A DNA stretch of 64,000 nucleotides. It comes from an uncultured virus (IMG/VR IMGVR_UViG_3300044706_000059). Lineage: Duplodnaviria > Heunggongvirae > Uroviricota > Caudoviricetes > Crassvirales. Below, one piece after another: positions 14,238 through 60,108 of the stretch; the first letter of the stretch is position 1, and each line of letters opens with the position of its first letter. A program made the position numbers and the translations under genes. Location: IMG/VR virus record IMGVR_UViG_3300044706_000059, positions 1 to 64,000 of that record, one strand, 5' to 3'. The notes below the pieces were generated by a model that worked only from the letters and a program-made list of their open reading frames with translations, was not told the origin of the DNA and did not search any database.

Positions 14238-14274
14238 AGTAATAAACAAACAATCATAGTAAATACTATTAGTT

Positions 14275-14586
14275 ATGAATGATATACAAGTAATGTCTCT
14301 TACAACCATTAGACCATACATTACCGTAAAAAGCCCCGTTAATGGACTAAATTTTTACCATTATTTACATATTAAAGGTGGTGCCGGTGGTTTTTATAGA
14401 AGAGATTTAGGTGGCGAATTTGACTTTATTCTATACTATTCTTCGCCTGATCAAGATGAAAAAATGGGAGATATATGCCCGCGAATAGCTTGCAGGGAGC
14501 TAAATATACCTTGTGGTGAGGGTAGTACTATAGAAGAAGCCCATGAAGATTTTCTTAAGAAACTTAAAAAGAACCCCATTAAATGA
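14275..14586 (+). CDS. Hypothetical protein with HicB-like C-terminus
   Basis: GEGSTIEEAHEDF. Confidence 0.45.
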   Translation: MNDIQVMSLTTIRPYITVKSPVNGLNFYHYLHIKGGAGGFYRRDLGGEFDFILYYSSPDQDEKMGDICPRIACRELNIPCGEGSTIEEAHEDFLKKLKKNPIK

Positions 14587-35163: not shown

Positions 35164-35496
35164 ATGTCTGATGAAAAAGAACTACTCAAGAAAATAAAAG
35201 AACTAGAAACAAAGGTTAGGATATATGAAGATAATGGAGCGGCAAAACTATACTACGCACTTAACCGAAAAATGAATGAGATGGGAGATATGCTAAATGA
35301 TAATTCTCTAAATAGCATAAACTTAGATGACCCTAAAGACAAGAGCTTTGATAGAATATTCAAGTTATTAGAAAAAAGTGAAACGGTTGCTAGTTCCGCC
35401 AAAGTATTAGGAACTATTGCAGGCATTACTGGAGATGAAGAAAAAGACGTGGCCCGAAAACCATTTATTGAAACCGTTGCAACTAGGAGGGATTAA
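35164..35496 (+). CDS. Putative terminase small subunit
   Basis: Small helical protein coupled to the large terminase. Confidence 0.55.
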   Translation: MSDEKELLKKIKELETKVRIYEDNGAAKLYYALNRKMNEMGDMLNDNSLNSINLDDPKDKSFDRIFKLLEKSETVASSAKVLGTIAGITGDEEKDVARKPFIETVATRRD

Positions 35497-37571: not shown

Positions 37572-37580
37572 GCTAAATCG

Positions 37581-37610
37581 TTGTAGATCAATTAAAAAAT
37601 CTTACATTTG
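37581..37610 (+). promoter_or_regulatory. Bacteroidota sigma-A-type promoter for the portal operon
   Basis: TTG (-33) ... TACATTTG (-7). Confidence 0.6.
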
Positions 37611-37627
37611 ATTAACTTTCTTGATTA

Positions 37628-40069
37628 ATGCCTGATAATCAAAACAATAGTATTGGAATTTCCGGCCAATCGTATAAAGATTTTCTTCTTACAAAGAATA
37701 TCCAAGATAAACTTGACCCTAAATACGGCAAACAGTTGGCTATGGATATTGAAGCTAAATATTCGGCCGGGGTTGCAAACGGATATTCGTTTTTAAGAAA
37801 TGATCGTTTTAAGACTAATATTTTATGGTCTGCTGGTAAAATAAATGCCTATGCTTTATTCGCTGATCTTTTAAACTTCAATGGAAAAATAAATTACGCA
37901 AACATTGATTGGAAACCTTTAATGATAATTAATAGAATTATCAGTGGGTTAGTAGGTCGATGGATGCAACGAATAGAAAAGGTTCATGTTACTGCTATTG
38001 ACCCTATATCTGTTAATGATAAAAAAGAACAATACGAACAAGCTGAATTTGTTTTATACAATCGAAAACAACTAGAACAATTACAACAAGAATCGGGAGT
38101 ACCTATGATACCTCCTGATCAATTTGTAGCAGAAGATAAAGATGATTTAGAAGAATGGGCAATAACGGGGCAGAAATTACCAGAAGAAATAAAGTATGAA
38201 ACAGGGACTAATGATATTCTACAGTCACAGGGATTTTTTGATGTTTTAAAGAAAAAATTACTTCATGATTCAGCCGAATGTGGCCTAGTGGGTACCTATG
38301 TTTGGATGGATGAATATGGTGTAATTCATGTAGAATGGGTAAAACCTTTGAACACATTCTATTCATATTCAGAATACGATGATTTCAGAGATACTGCTAT
38401 GCGTGGTTATGTGAAATCTATGAAGATTTCAGAGCTACGCAGGAAATATGGGAAGGAATTTGGGGGTAAGTTAACAGAAGAAGAAATATTTCAAATAGCC
38501 CAAACATCTTACGAATATCAACGATTCGATAAACTTACATGGAATTATGATTGGTTATTAGCATATATACGACCATATGATGAATGGAACGTAGAATGCC
38601 TTGTATTCTGGATTAAATCAGTAGATGAAGATGGTTATTTAATGACTGTTACTAAACAGAATAAAAGAACCATCATTGAACGAAGACAACAAGCTCCAAC
38701 TAATTTAGATGAAAATCAAGAGTTCGTAAAAAAAGATAAGTGGAATCTGTATAAAGGAGTATATGTTAGATATGCTCAAAAGATGTTGGAATGGGGGTTA
38801 GATAACAATATGATTCGGCCTCAAGACCCAAAGGAATGTGGTGATGTAGAGTTTCCAATAAGTCTTTATATGTATCAAAATCAGGATATGCGAAATATTG
38901 CACTCCCTGAAAAAATAGAAGTGCCAGTTAAGCAAATGATGGTTATTTACTTTAAGATGCAACAAGTAATAGCCACAATGATACCTCCAGGCGCTGCAAT
39001 TAATATAGATGCATTGCAAGAAGTTCAATTGGGGTTAGCTGCGGATGGAGAAAGCTCAATAAACGTACAAAAACTATATGAACAAACCGGCAGATTATAT
39101 TACCGTGGCCGAGATGCCGAAGGGAATGCATTACCAGTTCCAATTACAGAACTGCAAAATGCAGGATTTATTGGAGCAATGAACGGGTTAATTGATCAAT
39201 ACCAATTTCAGTATGGAGTTTTAAAGGATCAATTAGGGGAAGACCCAAATCTTATTACTCAGGCCGTTCAACCACGTGTTACATCGGAAAATGTTGAAGC
39301 ATCCCAACAAGCCGCGGCATTCGCTACCGATTATATGTATGATGCTTATTCTGCTGTGATGGCTGAAACTGCAAAAAAAGTAGCATGCTTACTTAATAAT
39401 TCAGTCCGGTTCGGCAGTAAGGCTTATCATCATTTAATGCAAGAGGAAGATGTAGCTGATCGACAGTTTGCAACTAGATTTGAAATGCTTCCAGATCAAT
39501 ATGAATTAATGGATTTAAAGAATTTTATGAATCAGTCATTGGCTGCCAATCCTCCATTAATTCAGTATTTAGACCCGTTTAGAATAATGAGAATAGCTAA
39601 AGAAAACGTAAAATTAGCATCTCTTTATTTAAGAAATGCCATGAAACGAATGAATAGGGCAGAATCTGAAAAGGCGCAACAACTTAGTCAGCAAAATGCC
39701 CAGGTACAAGCAATGGCGGCTCAACAGAAGGCGCAAGGAGATATGCAGTTACAAACTCAGAAATTGCAAGTAGAAAAGGAATTAGAAGAATATAAAGGGT
39801 TACAAGCCATGAAGCTGGCTATAGTGCAAGGTGCGATGCAAATCGCAGCTAAATCCGAAAATCCTCAAATGCCTACTTGGCTAGCTCCTGTTTTAAATCA
39901 ATTGGTGCCCAATTTAACTATACCAATCGACCAAGAAAATCAACAAATGGCTCAATTAATTCAAGGGCAAGCTATGCAACAACAGCAAAAGCAACAAGAA
40001 TCTCAAGAGCCAGCAAGCGAAGAAATGCAAGAAAGTCCTGAAATGGTACAACAAGAACAAATTCAATAA
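37628..40069 (+). CDS. Portal protein
   Basis: 813 aa after TerL; NYANIDWKP, VTAIDP, LYEQTG; Q-rich C-terminus. Confidence 0.85.
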   Translation: MPDNQNNSIGISGQSYKDFLLTKNIQDKLDPKYGKQLAMDIEAKYSAGVANGYSFLRNDRFKTNILWSAGKINAYALFADLLNFNGKINYANIDWKPLMIINRIISGLVGRWMQRIEKVHVTAIDPISVNDKKEQYEQAEFVLYNRKQLEQLQQESGVPMIPPDQFVAEDKDDLEEWAITGQKLPEEIKYETGTNDILQSQGFFDVLKKKLLHDSAECGLVGTYVWMDEYGVIHVEWVKPLNTFYSYSEYDDFRDTAMRGYVKSMKISELRRKYGKEFGGKLTEEEIFQIAQTSYEYQRFDKLTWNYDWLLAYIRPYDEWNVECLVFWIKSVDEDGYLMTVTKQNKRTIIERRQQAPTNLDENQEFVKKDKWNLYKGVYVRYAQKMLEWGLDNNMIRPQDPKECGDVEFPISLYMYQNQDMRNIALPEKIEVPVKQMMVIYFKMQQVIATMIPPGAAINIDALQEVQLGLAADGESSINVQKLYEQTGRLYYRGRDAEGNALPVPITELQNAGFIGAMNGLIDQYQFQYGVLKDQLGEDPNLITQAVQPRVTSENVEASQQAAAFATDYMYDAYSAVMAETAKKVACLLNNSVRFGSKAYHHLMQEEDVADRQFATRFEMLPDQYELMDLKNFMNQSLAANPPLIQYLDPFRIMRIAKENVKLASLYLRNAMKRMNRAESEKAQQLSQQNAQVQAMAAQQKAQGDMQLQTQKLQVEKELEEYKGLQAMKLAIVQGAMQIAAKSENPQMPTWLAPVLNQLVPNLTIPIDQENQQMAQLIQGQAMQQQQKQQESQEPASEEMQESPEMVQQEQIQ

Positions 40070-40077
40070 CAACAATT

Positions 40078-40206
40078 ATGGATACTCAACAATTAGCAGA
40101 AATAAAAGCATTAGCCATTAGATTAGCATATGAAATCAAGCCTACCGAAGAAATAGCAACAATATTGACAGATGCTGATATTATTTATCAATATTTAATT
40201 AAATAA
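40078..40206 (+). CDS. Small hypothetical protein, 42 aa
   Basis: Manually translated MDTQQLAEIKALAIRLAY..ADIIYQYLIK; fills the gap between genes. Confidence 0.5.
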   Translation: MDTQQLAEIKALAIRLAYEIKPTEEIATILTDADIIYQYLIK

Positions 40207-40208
40207 AA

Positions 40209-40487
40209 ATGGCTACAATAAATTGTACAAACCGAGGAGCTTCTCAAGCTATTAAAGGATCAAGCGTTGAAATTATACTTAATGGAGCAGAATCTTTAAG
40301 CGTATTGCCGGTGTTAGCCGTAGGACAATTAGCTACCGTTAGCAGCAATGGTGCGACAGGGAGGATAGACTTCGTTGATACATTGGGACATCTATTTCGG
40401 GTTAAGCCAACGCAACCAAATTTACAATTTAATTCAGGAACAACCAATACATTGAACGTCAATGAATTGATAACAATCACTTATTAA
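40209..40487 (+). CDS. Small putative virion protein
   Basis: Beta-rich; in the head module. Confidence 0.55.
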   Translation: MATINCTNRGASQAIKGSSVEIILNGAESLSVLPVLAVGQLATVSSNGATGRIDFVDTLGHLFRVKPTQPNLQFNSGTTNTLNVNELITITY

Positions 40488-40498
40488 CATATTACAAA

Positions 40499-40852
40499 AT
40501 GGTAAGTAAGGTAACTGAATATTCATTTTCAAATAATAAGTTAGTCATTGATATAGAAATGGCTAGGACTATTTCTATTCAAATAATTGGCGGGAGTGGT
40601 ACTCGTTCACTTCAAGGCACCAATGATGGAGGTGCAGTAACAGGATCTACTATTAATAACGCAGGCGATGCAACAAATTTTAGTACTATTCAGGCCGTAA
40701 AATTATCCGATGGGACATCGGTAACGTCTATTACTGATGCCGGGCTTTATAAAATTGATCCTGTAGCTTTTCAATATCTTCAAATAGGAGATGGTTCAAC
40801 AGCCGCCGCAACAAAAATATTAGTTTATAGGACTTTTGGAACTGGATTATAA
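40499..40852 (+). CDS. Small putative virion protein
   Basis: G/T/S-rich; in the head module. Confidence 0.55.
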   Translation: MVSKVTEYSFSNNKLVIDIEMARTISIQIIGGSGTRSLQGTNDGGAVTGSTINNAGDATNFSTIQAVKLSDGTSVTSITDAGLYKIDPVAFQYLQIGDGSTAAATKILVYRTFGTGL

Positions 40853-40860
40853 TTTTTTTA

Positions 40861-40883
40861 TATTTTTGCTACAACGTTGTAGC
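40861..40883 (+). promoter_or_regulatory. -7 box TATTTTTG followed by the perfect 16-bp palindrome GCTACAACGTTGTAGC
   Basis: Seen directly; related sites at 32321 and 32767. Confidence 0.6.
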
Positions 40884-40900
40884 TTTAAACAAATTTATGT

Positions 40901-42082
40901 ATGCCTGAAAATGTAGCAACAGTAGATCAGCCTCAAATATTGGAACAACAGCAACAAGCCGCGGTTGATAATGTAAATCAACAAATAGCAGAAAGTTTAT
41001 GGAATAATGTGCCGAATGCCTATCAATCGTCGGAGCAACCAGACCAAAATGCTGCCAATACTGATCAACCAAAACCTAATGAAGTTGCTACACCAGATAT
41101 TGATTCTCAAGAGTTATTAGGCGAGGATGAATATTTTCAAAAAAACTTTGGATTAAGCCTTAATGACTTTAAATCAAAATGGGAAACATTCAATAAACCG
41201 CAAGAGGCCGTACAGCCTCAAGAAGTAAAGTGGACATACGATGAATCCAAAGAAGATGAAATATATAATTATATTCATCAAAAAAGAGAGTTAGACCGCC
41301 TAGAAAAATATGATATCGCAGACGCAAACCAAGCAGCAGAAATTCTACGTGCAAATCTCCAATATAAATACAAGGGCACTCTTTCATCTCAAGAAATAGA
41401 TCGCTTATTTTCAAAACAGTATTCACTACCTACAAAGCCCATCCAAAGTTTAGAGCAGACAGACGAGGATTATGCATTGGCTACCCAAGCATGGGAACAA
41501 CAGGTAAGTGAAAAACAAATGGATATGATTATAGAGGCTAAAATGACAAAGCCTGAATTATCCAAATTAAAAAGCCAAATAGTTCAACCAGAGATACAAA
41601 AGCCACAACTACAGCAACAAGGTCCAACCCAGGAAGAACTGGCTGCCGCAGAAGCTGGACGTAAGGCTTATTTAGGAGCATTGGAAAGTGGATATCAAAA
41701 TTTTAAAGGATATAGTGTAGTAGCAAAAGACGGAGAAGTTCAATTGCCAATTAACTATACTGTTACCCCCGAAGAATTAACTGCTTCCAAACAAACGCTT
41801 GAAAATTTTAATATTAATGATTTTTTCGGTTCACGCTGGTTTGATGAAAGTGGAAATCCTAAAGTAACTGTCATGCAAGAAGATTTGTATGATTTGGTTA
41901 ATCGGGATAAAATTCATCAAAAAATAGCTAATGAGGCGGCTGCTCAAATGAAAGCCTACCTTATTAAAAACCAAAATAATATTAATCTTAATTCAGTAAA
42001 TCAGAATATGGGGCCAACTGCAAATCAAGCACCTCCAAAAACTGAAAGTCAATCGTTAGCTGAGAATATTTGGAAGTTATAA
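40901..42082 (+). CDS. Putative capsid scaffolding protein
   Basis: Acidic, Q-rich helical protein directly before the major capsid gene. Confidence 0.65.
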   Translation: MPENVATVDQPQILEQQQQAAVDNVNQQIAESLWNNVPNAYQSSEQPDQNAANTDQPKPNEVATPDIDSQELLGEDEYFQKNFGLSLNDFKSKWETFNKPQEAVQPQEVKWTYDESKEDEIYNYIHQKRELDRLEKYDIADANQAAEILRANLQYKYKGTLSSQEIDRLFSKQYSLPTKPIQSLEQTDEDYALATQAWEQQVSEKQMDMIIEAKMTKPELSKLKSQIVQPEIQKPQLQQQGPTQEELAAAEAGRKAYLGALESGYQNFKGYSVVAKDGEVQLPINYTVTPEELTASKQTLENFNINDFFGSRWFDESGNPKVTVMQEDLYDLVNRDKIHQKIANEAAAQMKAYLIKNQNNINLNSVNQNMGPTANQAPPKTESQSLAENIWKL

Positions 42083-42108
42083 ACCTTCACAATTAAAAAT
42101 TAAAAACA

Positions 42109-43548
42109 ATGGCAGGCATTCCTACCAGTAATATATTGCAACCCGGTAATATTTCAGTTTCCGGTGGTGCAAATAGAACACTCGTTTCCAATTTACAATT
42201 ACTTACTCCACAGTACTATAAAACATTTGTTGAAAAATATGGGCCTGAAAACTGGACATGGTGGTTAGCCACATATGGAGGCATGGAACAAGTTTACAAC
42301 CGTAATTTCTTCTGGTTTGAAAGCAGAGGTAAATTGCAAATTGGTATTCAACTTGCTTCCGATGTAACAGGGTTATCAGCAGGTTCAACTGCTGCTTGTA
42401 CTTTGGCGGCTGGCTTCCATTATAATTCAGGTACTCAAACTCCATTAAGGGTTGGTGAAACAGTATATATCGCTTCTACAAACGTTGGAGCTGAAATTAT
42501 AGCAATCACAGGAACTACCCCGAATGCTTTTACCTTTAATTTACGGCCAAAACAATCTACTCAATCATTAGCATCTGCTGGTCAGGCATCTACCCTGCAA
42601 GCTACAGATGTATTAATTTTTGGTGGTCGTACGGACGTGGGGGAAGCATCTGGTACAAGCGATCCTCAAGTTTATTTAACTCAACCGTACAATAATAACA
42701 TTACTGAGTTTCACGATACCTGGTCAGCTACTGACTTGGGTGAAATGACAGATGTATATATTGATACTGGCGTAAGTGGTTCGCCTATTGGCGGTGCTGC
42801 ACAAGCAGGCACAAGCTACTTTACATACATGGGGTTAACAAAAGCATCTCAACGTTTCGTTAATAACGTAGAACGTAAATTGATGTTTGGTGATGCAGTT
42901 ACAAATACAGGATTAGGGACTACGACATCCGTCGGTTCACAAGGTGTTTTACCATTTATTTTAGCTAACGGGGAAACTGTAAACTATTCAGTAGGTAATT
43001 TGGATATTGGATTTTTACATACTATGACGCGTGTAATGGATGTAAATGGATGTGTGAAACAAAATATGTGGATGGCAGATATTTTCCAACGCCAAGACTT
43101 TTCTGATGGTATTTTTACTCAATTCCCTGCTGGTTCTTTTGTTTGGGGATATGGTGAAAAGTCAGAAGAAGCTAGTCTAGCTTATGGTTTTAAAGTAATT
43201 GATATAGACGGGTATCGTTTCCAAATTTCTAAATACAGAAACTTTAACTCGGAAGCTTATACGGGTCTTACTCCTGTCAATGACTATTTCCGTAACTACG
43301 GTTTCCTGTGTCCAATGGGTGAAACCCCGGACGCTAAAACTCCATCAAGAGTATATAAGAATATTACCATAATGGCTCAACAACCCCCAAAAGGTGGTTC
43401 AGTCGGAAATGGTATCCGCGTATGGAACTGGGGTGGTGGTTCAACCAATCCAACTGATGGAACATTGCGGGATAATATTGAAATGGCAACATATCGCGCA
43501 ACACGTGTAGTTGCAGGCAACCAGTTTATCAATATTGTAGGAAGTTAA
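42109..43548 (+). CDS. Major capsid protein
   Basis: 479 aa; LPQYY..EKYG-like start, FFWFE, ERKLMFG, SQGVLPFI; followed by a strong hairpin. Confidence 0.85.
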   Translation: MAGIPTSNILQPGNISVSGGANRTLVSNLQLLTPQYYKTFVEKYGPENWTWWLATYGGMEQVYNRNFFWFESRGKLQIGIQLASDVTGLSAGSTAACTLAAGFHYNSGTQTPLRVGETVYIASTNVGAEIIAITGTTPNAFTFNLRPKQSTQSLASAGQASTLQATDVLIFGGRTDVGEASGTSDPQVYLTQPYNNNITEFHDTWSATDLGEMTDVYIDTGVSGSPIGGAAQAGTSYFTYMGLTKASQRFVNNVERKLMFGDAVTNTGLGTTTSVGSQGVLPFILANGETVNYSVGNLDIGFLHTMTRVMDVNGCVKQNMWMADIFQRQDFSDGIFTQFPAGSFVWGYGEKSEEASLAYGFKVIDIDGYRFQISKYRNFNSEAYTGLTPVNDYFRNYGFLCPMGETPDAKTPSRVYKNITIMAQQPPKGGSVGNGIRVWNWGGGSTNPTDGTLRDNIEMATYRATRVVAGNQFINIVGS

Positions 43549-43552
43549 TTAT

Positions 43553-43591
43553 ATAGGTAAAGCCCATATAAAATATATGGGCTTTACCTAT
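43553..43591 (+). terminator. 18-bp perfect hairpin after the major capsid gene
   Basis: ATAGGTAAAGCCCATATA-AAA-TATATGGGCTTTACCTAT. Confidence 0.75.
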
Positions 43592-43660
43592 CTTATTTAT
43601 TAATAGCGTAGTCCTGAAAAGGAGGTCACCCAAGCCTTAAATGCGCATAAAAATTACTTT

Positions 43661-44566
43661 ATGGCAACCTTAAGAGATGTTCAATTCGCTATGCATGGCG
43701 AACAAGATGTGGTAAATAGTAACCACGATGATGATTATGTACCAGAGTTAAAAATAAAAAAGACAGATAAGCCTGATGAAGATAATGGCTATGTAATTTT
43801 TAAATTAGTAAGAAAAAATAGTAATGGAGTTTATATACAGCCTATTGACTATGTAATAAATCCTAAAGAGCCAGAAAAAGGATTACAAATGATTCGACTT
43901 TTGGAAGGAGTTTCTTCTATATGGGCATCAGATCAAAAAGATATTCCAGAAGCTAAGGCGGGAAAGATGATGCGGTTCATAGAATGGCCTAAAGGATCAA
44001 GGTTTATGTCAGTACCTAAATGGGATAAGGCTAAGCTAGAATTTTTAGAATTGTGCTGCCATAATAGATTAAATCCAAATCGTACCAAAAGTAGTAAAAC
44101 CGAGTTTTTTAAATATGACCCCGAGCATGTAGCGAAAGAAAAGTTAGCTCAGGAAACTAAGGAAATTGAAATGTTATTAAAGGCACAGCAACAGCCTTTT
44201 GAAAAAATGAAAAAACATGCCTTTTATTTAGGTATCAAACTTACCCATGATTTAACAGGAGCACCCAAATCAGAGGAAGCAGTAAGAATGGAATATCTTA
44301 TTTATGCTAAAAGAAATCCATCCGATTTTGAGGCAAGTTTTGATTCTAAAGAAGTAGACATATACTATAAAATAAGGCAAGCAGTTATTGATAGTAAATT
44401 GGATATAGCACGTGGGGACGGCCGAATATATTGGGGTAAAAATGGTGGTGTAGTTTGTAATATACCAAAATCAGATAATCCGATTAAATATTTAACAGAA
44501 CTAGCATTGACCAATACAAAGGAAGGTAAAGAATTTAAGCAAGAACTTGAACGAATTGTAACATAA
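43661..44566 (+). CDS. Conserved post-capsid protein
   Basis: YAKRNPSDF..IRQAV motif; position between capsid and tail genes. Confidence 0.6.
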   Translation: MATLRDVQFAMHGEQDVVNSNHDDDYVPELKIKKTDKPDEDNGYVIFKLVRKNSNGVYIQPIDYVINPKEPEKGLQMIRLLEGVSSIWASDQKDIPEAKAGKMMRFIEWPKGSRFMSVPKWDKAKLEFLELCCHNRLNPNRTKSSKTEFFKYDPEHVAKEKLAQETKEIEMLLKAQQQPFEKMKKHAFYLGIKLTHDLTGAPKSEEAVRMEYLIYAKRNPSDFEASFDSKEVDIYYKIRQAVIDSKLDIARGDGRIYWGKNGGVVCNIPKSDNPIKYLTELALTNTKEGKEFKQELERIVT

Positions 44567-44580
44567 AAGGGAGGTAGGTT

Positions 44581-45252
44581 TTGGATATAAATCAAATGTA
44601 TCAACTTATACGTTTTATTATTAGAAAAAACCAGAATGGTAATTTAAATCCTTCTGATTTTAATAATATTATTAACGTTGCACAAAGTGGGTACATGGAT
44701 TACCTCCTGGGAGAATTTCAAAAATACACCCCTGGAAGACCGTGGGCCGCTGTAGAATTTGGCCAAAACCAAGATATTCGGCAGCGGCTTACACCTTTTA
44801 TATCTTCACCAGTTCCATTAACTATTGATGGTAATGGAAAATCTACATACCCCATAGATTTTATAAATGCTGATGCAATGTATTACGGCATTTATAATAG
44901 GCGTGTAAAATTTATTCAACAAGACAGGGTAGATAGTCATTTAAATAGTTATATCGACCCAATATCCAATAATCCTGTGTATTTAGTGATTGATACAGGC
45001 TTTCAATTTTATCCTAAAAATTTAGGATCAGCTTCATTGTCATACATAAAAAAACCGGCTACATTATTTTGGAACTCAACTACTGACATATATGGTCGTG
45101 TCAGTTATAATCCAACAGGAAGCGTACAACCACAATGGAATGACTTGGACAGTTTAGAAATCGTTGTTCGTGCTTTAATACAAGTAGGTGTCAATTTGCA
45201 GTTAAGAGATGTTGAGCAATATGCTAACCTTATTAAACAAGGAGGCCAATAA
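44581..45252 (+). CDS. Head-tail adaptor / tail ring protein (TTG start)
   Basis: KNQNGNLNPSDFN..AQ, YIKKP; GGGAGG upstream. Confidence 0.65.
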   Translation: MDINQMYQLIRFIIRKNQNGNLNPSDFNNIINVAQSGYMDYLLGEFQKYTPGRPWAAVEFGQNQDIRQRLTPFISSPVPLTIDGNGKSTYPIDFINADAMYYGIYNRRVKFIQQDRVDSHLNSYIDPISNNPVYLVIDTGFQFYPKNLGSASLSYIKKPATLFWNSTTDIYGRVSYNPTGSVQPQWNDLDSLEIVVRALIQVGVNLQLRDVEQYANLIKQGGQ

Positions 45253-45896
45253 TGATAAGAGGTGCATTTTTGGAATCCATTTTAATGCAGATATATGGCG
45301 AGAAAATAACAGATGATGCTGAAATTACCTATAACCTGGTAAATCTATATTGTCAGGAAGGAATTGCAGTAGCGGCACAAGCATCCTATAAAACTGCTAT
45401 ACAATTAGATGGGGTAGGATATATTAATAGTGGTTTTTATAGTACCTTTTCTGGATTGCCTATAGTTCAAGATAACACTGATAATCTATGTTATAAGTTT
45501 GTACTTCCAGAAATTCCAGTAGGTATTGCCGCAAATATGGGGGTGGCTGAGGTAAGATTTAAAGGTTCAGATGGTTTTACTTCTTTCCCAGGTATCCCGT
45601 TAAGCATGAATCAATGGTCGTATTTTGATAGTATGCCTCCGATTGCTAATAAGGTTCTTTATTTACCAGAAGGGAAAACAGTAAGAGCCAAAACACCACT
45701 AATATTAAGTCTATATACAGCAACGGTAAAAATAATTAGTGGAGGAGATACAACCGATCTAAACTCTGAGTTAAACGTTCCTCCCGATTCTATTCCTGTT
45801 ATTCGTCAATATATTATAGAAAAACTTTTAGCCCAACGTTCAATATCAACTGATGATGTAAATAATGGAAAAGATGATAATTTAAAACAATTATGA
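45252..45896 (+). CDS. Tail ring / tubular protein
   Basis: Coupled gene in the tail module; C-terminal DDVNNG. Confidence 0.55.
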   Translation: MIRGAFLESILMQIYGEKITDDAEITYNLVNLYCQEGIAVAAQASYKTAIQLDGVGYINSGFYSTFSGLPIVQDNTDNLCYKFVLPEIPVGIAANMGVAEVRFKGSDGFTSFPGIPLSMNQWSYFDSMPPIANKVLYLPEGKTVRAKTPLILSLYTATVKIISGGDTTDLNSELNVPPDSIPVIRQYIIEKLLAQRSISTDDVNNGKDDNLKQL

Positions 45897-46162
45897 TAAA
45901 ACCTATAAGAGATAATATTGTAGTACAAGCATTCCCATCAGATGAAATTTCAGATGGCGGTATTTTTGTTTCAGAAGCACATAGAGAAGTAAGTTGCAAA
46001 ATGAAGGTAATTGCAGTAGGAAATGGAACTAAAAAAGAGCCCATGAAACTAAAACAGGGAGATGTCGTATTTAGAGTAAAGGGAATGGGAACAGAAATAG
46101 AAATTAATAAACAGACCTATTTTATAGTTAAACAATCGTGGTTAATTGCTCAATTAAATTAA
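45893..46162 (+). CDS. groES: Co-chaperonin GroES
   Basis: IKPIRDNIVV..SDGGIF..VIAVGNG..LKQGDVV..GTEIEIN. Confidence 0.85.
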   Translation: MIKPIRDNIVVQAFPSDEISDGGIFVSEAHREVSCKMKVIAVGNGTKKEPMKLKQGDVVFRVKGMGTEIEINKQTYFIVKQSWLIAQLN

Positions 46163-46163
46163 T

Positions 46164-46931
46164 ATGAGCCAACATCAACAATGGTGTGTTTTGGATGAGT
46201 GTATAAATTCCTATTTAGATGAGTCGGAACAAAGCATTCATAAATTCTACAAAATATGGCAATTAGCTTTCAGGGTTATGACAGATCTTGGGATAGATTT
46301 TTTCTATCAAATTAAATCTGTAAAGCTCCCAGTTAATCCAAACTTCACTGTTAATTTACCATCAGATTGTTTAAAGTGGACAAAAATAGGAGTACTTAAT
46401 GATATAGGTGAAATAATTCCTTTAAAGTACAATGATAAACTAACATCCTATGGACAGTTTCCCGGTAATAGGTTACAGAAAACACAGGATGATACATTAT
46501 TCAATTTATTTCTTTTTAATACTCCTATATGGTATAACTATTGGACTGGTAACTCATTTTCTACGCTTTATGGAATGCCAAGTGGGGCACCCTTTGTAGG
46601 AAATTTTAAAGTAGATAATAATACTGGAATAATCCTTTTAAATGAAACATTTACCTATCAATATATAATGGTTGAATATATTGCTAATCCGCAACAAGAT
46701 CAGCAATACTTTATTCCAATTCAATTTAAAGAAGCTATTATAGCAGGGTTGGCATGGTTGGATATTAGATCAATTCCATATTCTCGTAGAGGTAATTTAG
46801 GCGATAAGCGTGATAGGAAACATGAGTTTTATAATCAAAGGCGTCTAGCTTGGGCAAGATATCGACCACTTTACCTGACCGAAGCATACGAATGGGCGCA
46901 AACCAATACACGACTTACGGTAAAATTGTAA
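46164..46931 (+). CDS. Tail ring / tubular protein
   Basis: LPSDCLKWTKIG..MVEYI; position before the stabilisation protein. Confidence 0.6.
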   Translation: MSQHQQWCVLDECINSYLDESEQSIHKFYKIWQLAFRVMTDLGIDFFYQIKSVKLPVNPNFTVNLPSDCLKWTKIGVLNDIGEIIPLKYNDKLTSYGQFPGNRLQKTQDDTLFNLFLFNTPIWYNYWTGNSFSTLYGMPSGAPFVGNFKVDNNTGIILLNETFTYQYIMVEYIANPQQDQQYFIPIQFKEAIIAGLAWLDIRSIPYSRRGNLGDKRDRKHEFYNQRRLAWARYRPLYLTEAYEWAQTNTRLTVKL

Positions 46932-51991: not shown

Positions 51992-53458
51992 ATGGCAGTA
52001 GCTACTATAAATCCTTGGGCAGCGGGAGCTGTTGTATTTGATCAGCGTCCATTTTTACAGTTCTATGAGCAACAAATGGCTCGTAAACAAGCAAAAGATG
52101 ATGCTTTAGATAATTATTTCCGTGACCTTAATAAAAATGTTACATCTGCCGGCATGCGTTCACAAGATGTATCTAGTTTATTGAAAAAGCAACAGGATGC
52201 ACAGCAGTATTATTTTCAAAATAAGGCTCAGATATTAAATCCAAAATTAGATAATGGAGCAGCTTATTCCGAATATCAGGCACGGCATCAAGACATGCTA
52301 GGGTTAATTGATCAAAGCAAAGAAGCTGCTAAATCTATGGATGAGATAGGTAAAATGAAGTTAAACCCTCAGATGTCATACATATTTGAAGACCCAAAAT
52401 TCATGGATCAATTACGATCCCATGAATTACCAATAGGTGATCCAAATAGGAAGGGTATAACTTTAGCTTCATTAACTGTTCCAGATAAACCAGTTGATAT
52501 TAAAGAATGGGATGCGTATAATAAATATTTAACAGGAGGAATACCACATGATAAAATACCTGGAGAAACAAAAAGTATAGGTAATTTCAAAACAAGCACC
52601 CCTATTTATCAGCAATACAGTCCTGAAAATCAAAAAGTAATTGCCGAGCATGCAATGAATGCTTACGAAAGTGATAGAAGATGGCGTACAGAAGCTAACA
52701 AAACATTTCAGGATATTATGCATGATCCTATGAAATATGATCAGTATAATAAAATGTATAAATCTATATACGGGAAAGATATTGATACTCCTAAAGAAGC
52801 ATGGGCAGCAAAAGGGATTATAGATAATAATATGAAGGCGGTGGAATACAAAGAAGGAGAAGACTTTGTGGCTAAGGAAAGATTCAAAGATGCTTTAAGT
52901 AGAGCAAGCCAAGAAGAATTGATAAAATTCAGGAAAAATATTGATCCTAATGATATGGAATTGAATAATCAATGGATTGATCGGTATTTACAAAACAGAT
53001 TGCAAACCGCAATGTCAGATGAAGCCAATTATAGAAAAGTTTATACACCACATACAACAAAGTACGGATATGAAATAAGCATGGATCCGGTTTTGGCAAA
53101 GTCATTTTCAAGGGGAGGCAGTGAACCAGATAGACTATATGTAACAGATGATGGACAAAAAATATGGCCTATCTTCTATAAATACGAAAAAGACCCTAAA
53201 ACAAAACAAACCATTCTTGTTAAAAATGATAAAGGCGATCCAGTGATAGATGAAGATATTAGTAAACCTTTAGAAATGGATCAAGCTAAATTAGCAATGG
53301 GATATAGAGGAGAAACAAAAAAACAGTTAGGCAAGACTATGAGTTCCAAAACTAAATCGACACAACCTAAATATCCTTTGCCGGCAGGTAAACCTGCAAC
53401 AGTAAAACAAAACGGATATACATATCATTGGAATAGCGAAATAGGATCGTATGAGTAG
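51992..53458 (+). CDS. Internal virion / ejection protein
   Basis: 488-aa helical protein; C-terminal QNGYTYHWN..YE. Confidence 0.6.
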   Translation: MAVATINPWAAGAVVFDQRPFLQFYEQQMARKQAKDDALDNYFRDLNKNVTSAGMRSQDVSSLLKKQQDAQQYYFQNKAQILNPKLDNGAAYSEYQARHQDMLGLIDQSKEAAKSMDEIGKMKLNPQMSYIFEDPKFMDQLRSHELPIGDPNRKGITLASLTVPDKPVDIKEWDAYNKYLTGGIPHDKIPGETKSIGNFKTSTPIYQQYSPENQKVIAEHAMNAYESDRRWRTEANKTFQDIMHDPMKYDQYNKMYKSIYGKDIDTPKEAWAAKGIIDNNMKAVEYKEGEDFVAKERFKDALSRASQEELIKFRKNIDPNDMELNNQWIDRYLQNRLQTAMSDEANYRKVYTPHTTKYGYEISMDPVLAKSFSRGGSEPDRLYVTDDGQKIWPIFYKYEKDPKTKQTILVKNDKGDPVIDEDISKPLEMDQAKLAMGYRGETKKQLGKTMSSKTKSTQPKYPLPAGKPATVKQNGYTYHWNSEIGSYE

Positions 53459-56400
53459 TAAAACATTTCCATCTAGTGGCACAAAGCCAAAATTTAACCC
53501 AGATGCAGATTATGAAGCTGTAGCAGATGCTCCTACGCCGAAAAGTAATAAACCCGCTTTTAATCCAAATGCTCATTTTGAACCAGTTCATGAAGAAAGA
53601 ACAGAGCCGGTTGCACAACCGGCTTTTCATGTTGAATTATCAACCCCTACATTTAAATCAGCACCTGCACAAACAGGGCCTAATACCTTTCAATATAATG
53701 CACCCGCAGAAGCAGGCGACATTATTAAACTAGGAGGTAAAGCTAGAGTAGCACAAGAAAATCTACATAAAGAATTATCTACCAATAAACAAGCATTAGG
53801 CAGAGTTATAGTTAATGATAGGATAAAGCAACAAGAAAAAAATAGACAAGCGGGCATAGTCGGCCCACAATTAACTGATCCATTATTTATAACTGATGAC
53901 GATTTAAATAAGGTAAATACCGAAGCTACAACTAATAGAGATAGAGCTAACCAAGTACTTAGTGCTGCCATGCAAATAAATCCTGAAAAAGCTCAGGAAA
54001 TACAAAAGAATGCTTACATGGTGGATGCCTTTAATAATGCTGCTCAGGATGTGAACGGAAATGAAAGGGTTAATAAAATAGAAGAAAACGCAAAGGCTAT
54101 TAGCAAAGGAGAATTGAATTATGACCATCACAACCAAATATTAAGTAAGCCGGAAGGATTCTTTGGAAGTTTAGTTTCTGCAAGAAATGAATTGAATAGA
54201 TTATCTGATGCCTACGATTATACCAAAAAAATGGAAGATGGAGGAAATGAAGCAGGTATAATAATGGAATTGAATAATAGAATAAAACGTGATCCAGATG
54301 AACCTGTTAAAATGCCAACAGGGTTATTGGGACATTTAGGCGCTAATATTGGAGGAATGCCCATTAAGGGATTAGCCGCCGGTACTGTAGCAGGTATTGG
54401 TACCTCACTGTTAGGTAATCCAGAAGCATCCGAAGCTGCGTTTAATATGGCAAGTGCAGGGGTAAATGCTAATGATATGTACAAAATAGGATATCAAAAT
54501 GCATTAGAGCAAAACTATGCCCTATTAAAACGGGATCATCCAGATATGCCAGATTATACCGCTTTTAAACAAGCTCAGGATTTAGCAGGTAAACAAGCGG
54601 TGGTTGATGCTGCATCGGCAGCAGCAATGCAATATTTAGGAGGCAAAGCCGGTTTTGGGGCAAGTAAACAATTGGCAAAGGGAATATCGAGTGGCTTATC
54701 ACAAGTAAAAGATGAATTGGGTAAAAAAGCATTTGAATCATTAGGGGTAGGTGCTATAGGGGCTGGCGGCCAAACTATAAAAAATCTGATGGCTCAAAAT
54801 GCAGGATTGAATGTACCCACATCCGAAGGCGCAATGGATCAATTTACTACAGGATTATTAATGACAGGTGCAATGTCAATGTTAGGATTAGGTAAAGATA
54901 TTTTGAAACCATTCACAAAAGCCAAATTAGCAAGTGGTATAGCTAAATTACCTGATAATGTAGTTGAACAAGGATTAAATAAAGTAGAGCAAGCAGGTCA
55001 TTTAACACCAGAACAGTTACAGAATGTAAAAGATATAATTAGCGAACAAAAAGCATTAGAAAATTCAATACCAGAAACGCTGCCGGAAAGCGATAGACAA
55101 AAAATAGGTGACAAGATAAAGGAGCGTTCACAACTAAAACAGCAATTAGAACAAGTAGATGAAGCGTATCATCCTGAATTAAAAGATAAAATAAAAAAAC
55201 TAAATGAAGATATATTAAGCATATCGAAAGGTTCAGAACGAGGTGAATTGCAACAGTTAGTTCATGGCGAAATTAACAAAGGGAATGTGCAAGGATATTT
55301 AACCGATATCCTACGAAATGCCAACGAAAAGGAATTAGAGCAATATATGAAGGAAATTTCCGAGCAAGCACATGATCCAGCATCCGAAGAAAATACAATT
55401 AAAACCTTCGGAGAAAAAATAGTTAATAAGGCTAAAGAATTATATCCGAAAAAAGAATCAGCCGTTTCAGTAATACAACCTGGGGAAATAAAACAACCTG
55501 AAACTATTACAATTGCACCACGCGAAAGGCCATCAGATATAAAATCTACTGAAAATGTATCAGTAATAATGCCTAATGAGGCAGGAGCCGGTAAGGTAGT
55601 TCCCGACAATATTGGTCATGTGGAAGTTAGCGAACATGGGGAAGATACCAAAACGGAAGCTGGTCAAGAAAATGGTACTCAACCTTCCAAACTTTCCGAA
55701 GATGGAATTAAGGAAGCTAAAGAACTGGGCAATTATTTAGCAGAAAATAATAAAACAAAAATAATTACCAGTGAAGTTCAGCGGGCGCAAGAAACGGCCC
55801 ATACTGCTGCTGCGGAAGTCAAAAATGCAACTGGTAAAGAAATACCAGTAGAAACTAACCCTTTGTTAAATACATGGAATATTGGTGAATATGACGGTAA
55901 GCCAGAAGGATCATTCAATGAAAAAGAATGGATAGATAAACCCAATGAAGCCCCAAAAGGCGGGGAAAGTTTTAATGACTTTAAAGGTCGTATGGAGCAA
56001 GCATATCAATATGTAAAATCATTACCAGAAGATAATCACGTCGTTTCTCATTCAAAAGTAATGAGAGCATTAGAAGCCTTAAAACAAACAGATGGTAAAT
56101 GGACAGACGAAACAACAAAGGAATTTTTAAACAATAAAGAATTACCCAATGCCGTTCCAATCCAAAGCACAAATGGCCTGGATGTTCGCCAACAAACCGG
56201 CAATGGCGAAACGATGGGCGAAGGAAACACCCAACCCGAAATCATTACCGGAACACAAGGAGGAAGCACCGAAGAAAAAAGTAATGATCAAGGTGAGGAA
56301 AACAAAATAGAAAATCTTACCATTGATGATGCATACGGATTACCATTTATTGATGAACCGGGAGATAAAAGAACAGGGGTTAAAAATAAAATTTCTGACC

Positions 56401-59036
56401 AAATAAGATTTGAGAGAAAACTACCGGAAGTGCCAATTATAAAAATGGGCTCGGATGTAGAAAAATTACAATTAGGGAAGGAGTTAGTAGATAGTGGTAA
56501 AATAAATCCATTAGATATTGTAAATAGAGTATTGAATGCGCCAGAAGGGGAACATGGAGTACAACCGAATGAAGTATTAGCATTACAATATTATATGCAT
56601 CAATTAAATAAACATGAGACTAATTTAAGGGAACAAAAAGCTAGGGCGGAAACTCCCATAGAAGAAGCTGAAATAAATGGGCAATTGCAACAATTGTCTG
56701 ATGAAATAGACGCTGCTACTAGAGCAAATAAAATAAGTGGGAATGCATGGCATTACGTGGGAGATTTTAGACAAATAGAGGTAGATACTGGTTATAATCC
56801 TCACAGAGACGTAGATTTAATTAGAGACGCGTATGGAGGAGAAATTCCTTCGGAAGTAAAAGCTCGGTTGGATAAAGTATTGAAAGAAAGAGATGACGCA
56901 TTAAATAAATTAGCTAAACTTCAAATAGAACAGACTAAGCAAGCCGCGGATGAAACTATAAAAAAGGAAAGTCCGCCAAAGAATCCTAAAAAATCAGCTA
57001 CTGACTTTAAGAATGAACGTACAGAAATAAAAAAATCCATTTCAGATAAATTAAAGAAAGGAAGAACAGGTGAAAGTGGGTTGACTGCCGTTCCATTACC
57101 ATTTGCAAAAGAACTTATTTCGATAACGCCTGAAATATTCCAGTTAATAAAAAGCTATGCAGAAGAAGGGGTGCAGAAAACAGAGGAAATAATTAACCGT
57201 TTACACGAAGTATTAAAAGATGAATTGGATGGTATTCAAAAATCAGATATTGTTAACTTATTGGCTGGTAAGTATAAGGCACAAGGTGAAGAAGTTGACC
57301 CGATAGCACAACGAATAAGAGATTATAGAACGGAAGCTAATATTTGGACTAAAATTGCTGCCGCGCTTAAAATGGAGGAAGATACGCCTAAGAAAAAAGA
57401 GGAAAAGAATAAAAAATTACAGGATTTACGAGATCGGTTAAATGACATACGGAAGCGCAATAAGGAAGCAGTTAAAGAAATACAATCCATTCTGACACCG
57501 GAAATGGCTAAAAAAGAATTAACGGATGCCGAAAAGGAACTAAATAGGTTAGAAAAGTTAAGAAAGTCAACAGAAACCAAATTTGCTAATAAAAAATATC
57601 TACAACCAGAAACTAAAAAAAGTACAGCTCTTAATACTGCTATAGTAAAAGAAAAACAACGTATAGCGAATGCCCAATATAATATTAGAGTAGAAAAAAG
57701 AAAGGCATTTGAATCTCAAAAGAACTTTTACCAAAAAGCATTAATGTGGACAGGCAGAGCTATAAGACTTTCTATATTGTCAGGGTATAATGTATTAGGT
57801 AAATTGGCTGCTGCTGCTACTATAGGTGGTGCAGGAAAGCGTATTCCAGAACAAGCAATCGGATTTATTTATGGTCAAGCATTCAGAGGAATAGCCGAGA
57901 AAGCGCCAATTGAAGGATTTACAAATGCAAAGGCAGAAGCTAAATTTTATAAAGAGTTCTTTAATCCAAAAACCTTTGCAAAAAATGCATGGCAAATATT
58001 AAAAACTGGAGAATCACCACTAAGCAAACAATTTTCAAGTGGACAATATGAACATATTCCCGGCTTATATTTGCCTACTGATTTGCACCAGATTATTAAA
58101 GACCCATTGAAACGTGCTACTTATGAAGCATCATTGAAAAATGCTATGGTGTGGGCTGAAAGACAAGGGTTAGATATTAACGATGACTTGGTAATGCAGT
58201 CATTGCAAACAGCGGCTTACAAACGGGCCCAGTATGAAATATTCCAAGAATCAAACGTTTTGTCGCGCAAATTTGGTGAATGGAAAAGCAATATGGAGAA
58301 AAAGGGTAATTGGGGAGCGACAGGTAAATTTTTGGCTGATTTCATGGTGCCGGTAAGTACAGTGCCTACTAATATTGCCCGGCGTGTTGTAACTACCTCA
58401 CCATTAGGACTAATACGCGGGGGAGTTAAAGTTGTTGAAGCCTACAGAAAAGGAATAGAAAATCTCACCCCAGAAGAGGCCGATTCAGTAATGAAGCAGC
58501 TAAAACAGGGTACATTGGGTACGGCTTTATGGTTAATAGGTTGGTATGGTGCTTCTTATTTTGGTGGTTTATATAGTAAATTCAACCCAAATAAAAGCCG
58601 TGATCAGGGCGAATTAAAATCGGATGAAATGTCGGTAGGAGGGAAAATGATTCCAAAGCCAATACAACACGCGTTACCATTAGAAGTGATTCAATTTGCG
58701 GCAACAGCCCGACACGTTTATGATCATTATAGTGATAAAGGTGCATCCACAGCGGAAACAATTGAGAAAGCAGGCTTAGCAAGCATAGGGGGATTAACTG
58801 AACAAATTCCAATCCTTGAATCAGCAGTGCACGCTATTGGCGCAACTACCGATCCGTACGAAGCTAAAAAACTAGAAGATGACGCAAAACGTAGGTTTGA
58901 ACCACAAATTTTGAAAGAAACAGGAATAATAGGAAAAGAATCTGGTGGTAGCGGAGGTGGTGCCGGCGCTACCGGAACAGTAAGCAAACCAACTAGAGAA
59001 CATAGACCTACAAGAACACATAAAACTCATAGATAA
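53451..59036 (+). CDS. Giant internal virion / ejection protein with a histidine-phosphatase-like domain
   Basis: 1861 aa; N-terminal FNPxAx(Y/F)ExV repeats; G/A-rich helices; EHG..LSEDG..SEVQRAQET..GESF..VSHS. Confidence 0.7.
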   Translation: MSSKTFPSSGTKPKFNPDADYEAVADAPTPKSNKPAFNPNAHFEPVHEERTEPVAQPAFHVELSTPTFKSAPAQTGPNTFQYNAPAEAGDIIKLGGKARVAQENLHKELSTNKQALGRVIVNDRIKQQEKNRQAGIVGPQLTDPLFITDDDLNKVNTEATTNRDRANQVLSAAMQINPEKAQEIQKNAYMVDAFNNAAQDVNGNERVNKIEENAKAISKGELNYDHHNQILSKPEGFFGSLVSARNELNRLSDAYDYTKKMEDGGNEAGIIMELNNRIKRDPDEPVKMPTGLLGHLGANIGGMPIKGLAAGTVAGIGTSLLGNPEASEAAFNMASAGVNANDMYKIGYQNALEQNYALLKRDHPDMPDYTAFKQAQDLAGKQAVVDAASAAAMQYLGGKAGFGASKQLAKGISSGLSQVKDELGKKAFESLGVGAIGAGGQTIKNLMAQNAGLNVPTSEGAMDQFTTGLLMTGAMSMLGLGKDILKPFTKAKLASGIAKLPDNVVEQGLNKVEQAGHLTPEQLQNVKDIISEQKALENSIPETLPESDRQKIGDKIKERSQLKQQLEQVDEAYHPELKDKIKKLNEDILSISKGSERGELQQLVHGEINKGNVQGYLTDILRNANEKELEQYMKEISEQAHDPASEENTIKTFGEKIVNKAKELYPKKESAVSVIQPGEIKQPETITIAPRERPSDIKSTENVSVIMPNEAGAGKVVPDNIGHVEVSEHGEDTKTEAGQENGTQPSKLSEDGIKEAKELGNYLAENNKTKIITSEVQRAQETAHTAAAEVKNATGKEIPVETNPLLNTWNIGEYDGKPEGSFNEKEWIDKPNEAPKGGESFNDFKGRMEQAYQYVKSLPEDNHVVSHSKVMRALEALKQTDGKWTDETTKEFLNNKELPNAVPIQSTNGLDVRQQTGNGETMGEGNTQPEIITGTQGGSTEEKSNDQGEENKIENLTIDDAYGLPFIDEPGDKRTGVKNKISDQIRFERKLPEVPIIKMGSDVEKLQLGKELVDSGKINPLDIVNRVLNAPEGEHGVQPNEVLALQYYMHQLNKHETNLREQKARAETPIEEAEINGQLQQLSDEIDAATRANKISGNAWHYVGDFRQIEVDTGYNPHRDVDLIRDAYGGEIPSEVKARLDKVLKERDDALNKLAKLQIEQTKQAADETIKKESPPKNPKKSATDFKNERTEIKKSISDKLKKGRTGESGLTAVPLPFAKELISITPEIFQLIKSYAEEGVQKTEEIINRLHEVLKDELDGIQKSDIVNLLAGKYKAQGEEVDPIAQRIRDYRTEANIWTKIAAALKMEEDTPKKKEEKNKKLQDLRDRLNDIRKRNKEAVKEIQSILTPEMAKKELTDAEKELNRLEKLRKSTETKFANKKYLQPETKKSTALNTAIVKEKQRIANAQYNIRVEKRKAFESQKNFYQKALMWTGRAIRLSILSGYNVLGKLAAAATIGGAGKRIPEQAIGFIYGQAFRGIAEKAPIEGFTNAKAEAKFYKEFFNPKTFAKNAWQILKTGESPLSKQFSSGQYEHIPGLYLPTDLHQIIKDPLKRATYEASLKNAMVWAERQGLDINDDLVMQSLQTAAYKRAQYEIFQESNVLSRKFGEWKSNMEKKGNWGATGKFLADFMVPVSTVPTNIARRVVTTSPLGLIRGGVKVVEAYRKGIENLTPEEADSVMKQLKQGTLGTALWLIGWYGASYFGGLYSKFNPNKSRDQGELKSDEMSVGGKMIPKPIQHALPLEVIQFAATARHVYDHYSDKGASTAETIEKAGLASIGGLTEQIPILESAVHAIGATTDPYEAKKLEDDAKRRFEPQILKETGIIGKESGGSGGGAGATGTVSKPTREHRPTRTHKTHR
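56149..56310 (+). CDS. Nested out-of-frame 53-aa basic protein (MPFQSKAQ type)
   Basis: MPFQSKAQMAWMFANKPAMAKRWAKETPNPKSLPEHKEEAPKKKVMIKVRKTK in the +1 frame of the giant gene. Confidence 0.65.
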   Translation: MPFQSKAQMAWMFANKPAMAKRWAKETPNPKSLPEHKEEAPKKKVMIKVRKTK

Positions 59037-59545
59037 TGGCTAAAAAGATAATGATAAAAGTAGCTCCTCCATCGGGTGACCCAAAAAATCCTACTGTTGA
59101 TCAGGGACCAGTTATTTTAAGCCCTGGTAAAACACCAATAGATCAAAACTTTGATTTAAGGGACAGGATTTATGAATTAATTGGAAGCCAAAACAATCTA
59201 AAACCCGGCGATCAGGCGGCCATTTATGCTAATTTAACTCGAATGCTGGGAAAGGATAGGGCAACAAAAGTAATGGATCATACGTATCTGTTCAATGCTA
59301 AACCAGAATACCAAAAATTGCCAATTGAGGAAAGAATTAAGCATTTTTACGATATTGGCTCCAATGATCCAGATGTACAAGACATAATGACTAAAACTAA
59401 GGTATTAGGCTATGGAACAGGGCAGGGATTCCGAACTTCACAAAGCCAAATAAATCAAGCATTGGCTGGCCGCATCCCCATTACCGAAACAACCGATATA
59501 ACGCCTGACGTTCAGAAAAAAATAATGCTTAAAGTAACCAAATAG
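59036..59545 (+). CDS. Hypothetical virion-region protein with KKIM(I/L)KV at both ends
   Basis: Coupled to the giant gene; followed by a TAGCAC/GTGCTA hairpin. Confidence 0.65.
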   Translation: MAKKIMIKVAPPSGDPKNPTVDQGPVILSPGKTPIDQNFDLRDRIYELIGSQNNLKPGDQAAIYANLTRMLGKDRATKVMDHTYLFNAKPEYQKLPIEERIKHFYDIGSNDPDVQDIMTKTKVLGYGTGQGFRTSQSQINQALAGRIPITETTDITPDVQKKIMLKVTK

Positions 59546-59598
59546 CACTTTAAAATGTGCTATTTTTATTATATTATTTTGTTAAAGCCTGATTTTGT

Positions 59599-60108
59599 AT
59601 GGCATTCAATGGAGCCTTTACAATCACTAGCGTTATTACGCCGGGGTCATTTATTTTAAATGATACCACTACTGGTTCAGATTCTAATCTGACTGATAGG
59701 AAAATTTCTTTATATCAAGCTGATGGAACTTTATTAGGTGGAGTACCAATTGATTTCCCTTACACTATGGGCAATTCAATTACTTTAAATGTATTGAATA
59801 TTGATTATTGCCTTCTTATTGCAGTTCAATGGATAAGTTCATCACCATTACCGCCTCCTTCATCTTACTCAGCATCAGGACTATATAATTTCCTCGGTAA
59901 CTCTTATTACTTTCTAAACAATTTAATAGGGGCCATTCAATCCAATCCTAATATTTTAAATGATGTAGGGTTTGATACCAATCTGAGTAAGTTACAAACA
60001 GATATAGATTGTAGTAGTCAAGCATCTTCTACTGGACAACAGGCAAGTGCGCAAGCAGCCTTATCAAGAATACAATCATTGATTGTTAATCAAAACTATT
60101 TTTTCTAA
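59599..60108 (+). CDS. Putative tail-fibre-associated structural protein
   Basis: LNDTTTGSD beta-rich N-terminus; TATTTTTG promoter box upstream. Confidence 0.55.
   Translation: MAFNGAFTITSVITPGSFILNDTTTGSDSNLTDRKISLYQADGTLLGGVPIDFPYTMGNSITLNVLNIDYCLLIAVQWISSSPLPPPSSYSASGLYNFLGNSYYFLNNLIGAIQSNPNILNDVGFDTNLSKLQTDIDCSSQASSTGQQASAQAALSRIQSLIVNQNYFF

Follow-up and report, generated by a model that had tools for sequence, protein, structure and literature searches.

A 53-codon MPF-start gene nested in a giant virion-module gene of an uncultured Crassvirales phage: a probable case of dual coding

A 64,000-nt stretch of DNA (the window), positions 1 to 64,000 of the 76,331-base IMG/VR record IMGVR_UViG_3300044706_000059 from an uncultured virus of the Crassvirales, was analyzed for a small open reading frame (ORF) nested inside a giant gene. 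The host gene, a 1861-codon ORF on the plus strand (53451..59036), is located in the virion module downstream of the terminase, portal, and structural genes. A Pfam search of its product found a histidine phosphatase domain, His_Phos_1, as the sole domain (E = 2.2e-22), which sits inside this giant virion-module protein at host residues 729–874 (window 55635..56072, plus strand) and is matched over the same stretch by phrog_12933. The nested ORF (56149..56310, plus strand) starts 25 residues after the end of this domain and runs from ATG to TAG over 53 codons in the +1 frame of the host ORF (offset 2698 = 3 × 899 + 1), just as a first-pass annotation of the window had placed it. Its product, MPFQSKAQMAWMFANKPAMAKRWAKETPNPKSLPEHKEEAPKKKVMIKVRKTK, is a member of phrog_1375 with a Met-Pro-Phe (MPF) start and carries a net charge of +10, compared with a mean of +9.4 for the small members of the family. 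The nested ORF, which also served as the positive control of the copy search, was the sole family copy found in the window and in the whole record.

The local features listed in the first-pass annotation, namely a low-complexity linker in the host frame, an A-rich leader, and a rise in GC, were all recovered. In the host frame, the overlap (56148..56312, plus strand) is read from host residue 900 as NAVPIQSTNGLDVRQQTGNGETMGEGN..., a low-complexity, acidic linker that lies between domains after His_Phos_1. The 20 nt preceding the nested ATG (56129..56148, plus strand), presumably its translation-initiation region, have an A fraction of 0.60 vs. 0.40 gene-wide, a value reached by 5.4% of the 20-nt windows of the gene. 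The GC content of the nested ORF is 0.469 (0.514 over its first 35 codons) vs. 0.374 for the gene, and only 0.5% of the 162-nt windows of the gene reach 0.469. In synonymous-codon shuffles of the host gene, a +1 ORF starting with ATG and of at least 53 codons arose in 689 of 2000 replicates. A longer +1 ORF of 68 codons (53527–53733) is present in the same gene as well; it was without support and was taken as chance.

What sets the nested ORF beyond chance is, as judged from its sequence, homology. The peptide matched phrog_1375 over residues 3–45 (E = 1.8e-5), and a phmmer-type database search retrieved 22 small predicted proteins with E-values of 4.9e-13 to 2.8e-4, so that the resemblance to MPF-start small phage proteins noted in the first-pass annotation was confirmed. 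A family profile built from a 42-sequence alignment matched 4670 representative clusters at E ≤ 1e-3 and 888 at E ≤ 1e-10, and 128 of the best 150 clusters had an MPF start. These best 150 clusters comprised 68 of ≤80 aa, 35 of 81–150 aa, 37 of 151–400 aa, and 10 longer ones; in the longer clusters, the MPF module was N-terminal and fused in frame to very diverse proteins. Residues M1, P2, F3, S5, and Q8 were invariant in the 42-sequence alignment, and the nested peptide shows this pattern, its core starting at the initiator Met. An AlphaFold2 model computed from this alignment had a mean pLDDT of 83.6, with helices at residues 6–15 and 17–26 followed by an extended, Lys-rich basic tail. The nested protein is therefore confidently predicted by the model to fold as an N-terminal two-helix hairpin with a basic tail. 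No Pfam family was found at E ≤ 1 for the nested peptide, nor at E ≤ 0.1 for 16 relatives; the NCBIfam search of the 42 members gave nothing meaningful, and a sequence search of solved structures gave only chance matches to beta-propeller repeats. DUF3008 (PF11450) was considered and rejected, as it gave no Pfam match, and the DUF3008-labelled cluster of the protein atlas scored 0.83, under the lead threshold of 0.9. A subfamily with two conserved Cys and a weak main-profile score was also observed (a subset of loci L092–L132, plus L001 and L002), nested both in hosts of about 400 aa and in giants of the elemo type.

To survey the genomic contexts of the family, viral contigs were scanned by tblastn with the peptide; from 326 confirmed stretches, 80 loci were retained, and all were classed with the profile. 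The family ORF was nested in ORFs of at least 1000 codons at 24/80 loci and near the start of ORFs of about 400 codons, between the portal gene and a structural-protein gene, at 10/80. It was free-standing at 32/80 loci; the remaining 14/80 were ambiguous overlaps of short open frames, mostly high in GC and probably due to chance. All of the 34 nested copies lay in the host +1 frame, and ATG was found at profile position 1 at 78 of the 80 loci. When the overlap was masked, 38 nested hosts fell into six groups with no BLASTP link between them at E ≤ 1e-5; hosts elsewhere than in the window included LPD23-domain proteins (e.g., the host of L010), proteins matching the DarB-like phrog_10089, and virion structural families. 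The first-pass annotation described the MPF-start proteins as usually free-standing, and this stood only in part: free copies do exist, but nested copies were as common in this peptide-selected sample. Stand-alone homologues, whose absence it had named as evidence against the gene, were found in quantity, at the 32 free loci, among the 4670 clusters, and as the annotated 72-aa gene 48 of Streptomyces phage FlowerPower.

Among GenBank phages, the best tblastn matches fell inside annotated giant coding sequences (CDSs) of Flavobacterium phage elemoC_14-1A and the uncultured podovirus ctfjg026. Both contain a complete ATG-to-stop ORF of 42–43 codons in the host +1 frame with no small CDS annotated, in agreement with the expectation that gene callers would miss it, and the remaining 67 elemo records with tblastn matches list only 'structural protein' under the match. 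The elemo phages with the nested ORF grow on Flavobacterium sp. BAL314. Searching the GenBank phages at the DNA level with window positions 55400–57000 gave no match.

Selection on the two frames was then evaluated. Pairwise differences per site at small-frame codon positions 1, 2, and 3 were 0.334, 0.269, and 0.484 in the giants and 0.179, 0.191, and 0.353 in the hosts of about 400 aa. Differences among nested copies thus peak at the small-frame third position, which is the host first position, so that the host third position ranks lowest or second lowest in variability. The ratios of nonsynonymous to synonymous differences (pN/pS) were calculated by Nei-Gojobori counts for the nested core vs. 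its flanks in three host groups. Host pS in core vs. flank was 0.165 vs. 0.669 in the ~400-aa hosts, 0.137 vs. 0.701 in giant group A, and 0.038 vs. 0.384 in giant group B, that is, host synonymous diversity was 4- to 10-fold lower over the nested core. The host-frame synonymous constraint proposed earlier as a check was therefore present. In the same order, host pN/pS was 1.08, 1.14, and 4.18 in the core vs. 0.40, 0.69, and 0.58 in the flanks, and small-frame pN/pS was 0.30, 0.21, and 0.11. A sliding scan showed that host pS as low as in the core was reached by none of 309 other 35-codon windows in the ~400-aa hosts, none of 944 in group B, and 9 of 800 in group A.

Codon usage at Phe-3 pointed to a constraint on the host frame to stay open. 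TTC was used in all of 32 nested copies, while TTT, which would create a TAA in the host frame, was used in 11 of 27 free copies. Moreover, several stops were found in the equivalent of the host frame in AT-rich free copies, but none in nested copies. As read from these substitution patterns, purifying selection acts on the small frame of nested copies, and the host frame is kept open over the nested ORF; therefore, both frames matter. Two marks of an embedded gene, a whole ORF within a larger same-strand ORF and selection on the embedded frame, were found. In the host frame, the T of the nested ATG is the third base of an Asn codon in the window phage and of an Asp codon in the elemo phages. 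By eye and without counting, Lys codons in nested tails were mostly AAG, read as GAA (Glu) in the host frame, and therefore a basic tail in one frame accompanies an acidic linker in the other.

To approach the locus through the host protein, relatives were also selected by host similarity. Only one relative of the window giant was found, L085, whose giant protein is 36% identical overall and which retains a 58-codon ORF at the same place. Between the two, the small frame was identical at 18/36 residues with a pN/pS of 0.42, whereas the host frame over the nested ORF was identical at only 6/36 with a pN/pS of 1.55. In the 99 host codons upstream, 78/99 residues were identical, pN/pS was 0.20, and differences peaked at the host third position. 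Among host-selected loci, the nested ORF was kept in 16/16 of group A, and an intact ORF of at least 37 codons was found in 54/80 of the ~400-aa family. Thus the frame, whose interruption in close relatives had been named as grounds for doubt, was intact in the single relative of the window giant, throughout group A, and in most of the ~400-aa family. Three of the 26 ORF-lacking relatives in the latter family look like decayed remnants: L124, L140, and L144 carry a host-frame DA(I/L)R-type remnant of the usual DAVQ and no intact nested ORF, and L144 has a 25-codon MPY-start stub. A copy elsewhere was not found in any of five records lacking the nested ORF, which are fragments of 42–66% completeness and hence uninformative.

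The window phage shares the terminase phrog_6681, the portal phrog_6547, the structural phrog_14543 and phrog_13977, and their gene order with L080 (window 35496–46931). Phages of the L080 type carry the nested ORF in a gene of about 400 aa, and the window phage carries it in the giant gene instead.

Signals for translation initiation were also assayed. GGAG or GAGG was located at −18 to −4 before the nested ATG at 15 of 17 loci (group A plus L073 and L077, which are related loci), while only 110 of 1562 other ATG triplets within 3 kb (7%) were preceded by it. These motifs demonstrate, at the level of sequence conservation, that phages of Shine-Dalgarno-using hosts retain a ribosome-binding site inside the host coding sequence. 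In the window phage, GGAG or GAGG was found at these positions in only 3 of 40 genes, and the nested ATG has the A-rich leader instead, which fits the scarcity of Shine-Dalgarno motifs in this phage. Separate initiation at the nested ATG would be the simplest reading of these data.

On the basis of homology, selection in both frames, and recurrence in six host groups, the interpretation of the first-pass annotation as real dual coding was supported, and we estimate with a probability of about 0.88 that 56149–56310 codes for two proteins, the host linker and a 53-residue basic protein of the MPF family. Ribosomes translating the giant virion-module gene would read the overlap as an acidic, poorly conserved linker following the histidine phosphatase domain, and other ribosomes would initiate in the +1 frame at the internal ATG, producing the 53-residue, strongly basic protein.

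The word overprinted in the first-pass annotation held as to the nesting, but the direction it implies should probably be reversed. Because the small family has a much wider distribution than any of its hosts and the host linker is poorly conserved, the small gene is probably the older and the linker reading in the giant the younger, and the giant ORFs would have come to read through a pre-existing small gene. Free copies adjoin or lie near genes for the large terminase, portal, virion, or internal proteins, and the FlowerPower copy lies between a peptidase gene and a holin gene. Many free copies begin right at the stop codon of the preceding gene, a 1939-codon ORF in L031, and this was read as a possible route by which a giant ORF extends across the small gene. 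In L031, the giant ORF (179–5998) is followed at once by a free MPF gene (6001–6177). In other giants, the sequence immediately preceding the nested ORF is matched by residues 4–162 of this giant and the sequence immediately following it by residues 221–447, and between these blocks the +1 frame is full of stops. This junction may represent a decayed nested copy, with a likeness of only about eight host residues.

Three other explanations were weighed against dual coding. The nested ORF could be an untranslated relic, that is, a free gene swallowed by fusion of its flanking genes, whose ORF persists through constraint on the host frame or on the DNA. In line with this, 26/80 relatives with ~400-aa hosts lack the ORF, its length is unremarkable, and no RNA run was listed for the stretch. 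A relic would not be expected, however, to vary most at the small-frame third position, to lie where host pN/pS is at least 1 with 4- to 10-fold lower pS, to keep the ATG at 78/80 loci and a Shine-Dalgarno motif at 15/17, and to retain family-invariant residues across six host groups, so we consider it very unlikely. The same three-base periodicity, with the small-frame third position freest, would not be given by a conserved DNA joint, in which the sequence is retained as a recombination linker for shuffling giant-gene modules and not for a protein, and this explanation would further leave the free-standing protein-coding homologues unaccounted for. Features of elemoC_14-1A (L001) nevertheless point to it: an exact second copy of 24 bases that include the nested start lies 396 nt upstream (about nt 3598–3621 and 3994–4017), the repeats bracket an extra host module, and the upstream copy is a truncated 10-codon ORF. 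This repeat suggests recombination at the nested-start sequence, and the similarity between the host genes of the window and L085 also drops directly after the nested ORF. As a full explanation a DNA joint is, like a relic, very unlikely, but it may operate alongside dual coding instead of competing with it.

The least probable of the three is a frameshift product, made by a −1 slip from the small frame into the C-terminal half of the host or by a +1 slip from the host into the small frame. Long in-frame fusions with an N-terminal MPF module do exist (>150 aa in 47 of the best 150 clusters), and the tails are rich in Lys and in A. Yet in-phase X_XXY_YYZ heptamers were found in 6/33 nested vs. 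7/27 free tails and in none in the window, that is, there was no conserved slippery site; the small frame has a stop 1 to 66 codons upstream of the ATG among 73 ORFs listed (6 codons in the window), and conservation of the ATG and the Shine-Dalgarno motif points to initiation.

Several points weigh against dual coding or the roles proposed for its product. The length of the nested ORF alone is within chance. Overlapping frames bias standard pN/pS values such as those above, and selection with the peptide favours intact copies among the 80 loci. Since related loci are not independent, a count such as 15/17 also exaggerates how many events occurred. Among the 26/80 ~400-aa-host relatives without the ORF, mostly the whole segment is gone, and the nested gene is therefore dispensable in some lineages. 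No RNA runs containing the stretch were listed, only DNA runs that are possibly the source sample. As to function, the Foldseek matches among viral models were uncharacterised phage proteins only, and the functional reading draws on gene neighbourhood and analogy only. Papyrus gp8, a weak match (E = 0.05), has the motif nine residues in from its N-terminus, and a free MPF N-terminus is therefore not universal.

Embedded +1 genes are already known in phages, with the lambda Rz/Rz1 spanins as the classic example, and the MPF case adds to this kind with unusual breadth. Like the nested MPF gene, Rz1 is a small gene contained entirely within a larger phage gene, in its +1 frame; as the spanin paper describes, Rz and Rz1 are both read from the same late message, and related pairs are embedded, overlapped, or separated (PMC6139136). 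The extension of giant ORFs across a small gene would resemble the embedding route proposed there for spanins, in which loss of an upstream stop lets the larger ORF continue over the small gene (PMC6139136). In contrast, Rz1 is an outer-membrane lipoprotein with a lipobox Cys, while the nested peptide has neither a Cys nor a signal sequence and so lacks the features of an outer-membrane spanin. Moreover, Rz1 partners its own host protein, whereas the MPF family is found in six host groups without a BLASTP link and is also free-standing and N-terminally fused; no family mixing embedded with other architectures appears in the available sections of the spanin paper (PMC6139136). The closest likeness of the nested peptide is to phrog_1375 proteins such as FlowerPower gene 48, which share the Met-Pro-Phe or Met-Pro-Tyr start, the two-helix core, and the basic tail; their annotated genes are free-standing, while the window copy is nested and unannotated.

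The host of 1861 aa likewise resembles the polyvalent proteins (Iyer et al., 2017; PMC5512222) in being a giant, multi-domain protein of the virion module, and hosts at other loci carry LPD23 or match phrog_10089. The window giant differs in carrying His_Phos_1 only, and no LPD domain was found in it by the Pfam search. The terms 'overlap', 'frameshift', and 'linker' do not occur in the main text of the polyvalent-protein paper by term search (PMC5512222). A literature search covering the peptide, its PHROG number, and genes nested within polyvalent or virion proteins found no report of the nested MPF arrangement, with most subscription journals outside the search.

By pure analogy, the MPF module can also be compared with the T4 capsid targeting sequence, a short conserved N-terminal element on otherwise diverse internal proteins packaged into the head (PMC3012670). 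Both stand at the N-terminus of very diverse proteins, but the MPF module shows no sequence likeness to the T4 element and is mostly a stand-alone peptide, so any resemblance in packaging or cleavage is analogy only. From this comparison and the gene neighbourhood, we tentatively suggest a function for the product in the head or virion module, a role we think possible rather than probable; it could be a small, basic internal protein, for instance, or a head-targeting module dependent on a free N-terminus. More speculative, and doubtful as a whole, is a joint reading in which the low-complexity linkers of giant injected proteins would be a general hiding place for complete small genes, the MPF module, possibly a head-targeting or head-assembly hairpin, would need a free N-terminus, and the same DNA would be a joint for module exchange. 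A requirement for a free Met-Pro-Phe, if true, would explain why the module is never internal in frame and is started separately inside the giant.

A second nested gene, unrelated to the MPF ORF, was observed in the group-A giants at a place where host synonymous diversity falls and host pN exceeds pS. It spans 78–90 codons in the host +1 frame (e.g., L006:4639–4878 and L010:4888–5130) and lies 1.07–1.5 kb upstream of the MPF ORF. A tblastn search recovered it at 15/15 group-A loci, and it was also present at 16/16 host-selected loci, with AAAGGAG just 5′ of the ATG in 10 of the 11 loci listed and AAAGGAA in L009. Thirty database clusters match it, and no homologue was found in the window. Elsewhere in the window, the tandem ORFs of about 106 aa at 13271–14586 and the two 169-aa ORFs at 59036–60108 had been guessed to be paralogues, a guess dropped as neither set showed BLASTP similarity.

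The nested MPF gene has consequences for how phage genomes are read. Gene callers forbid genes inside genes, so the family is absent from the annotations of elemoC_14-1A and ctfjg026 and is missed in many metagenomic phages. Likewise, the synonymous-constraint scan of a single host group gave a second hidden gene, and giant phage proteins may hold more. One old family that is free-standing, fused, and nested in unrelated giants offers a natural system for studying how ORFs come to read across existing genes, and the forced TTC at Phe-3 exemplifies how a codon is shared between two frames. With 4670 representative clusters and a steady place in the head or virion module, the MPF family would be a worthwhile target for functional study.

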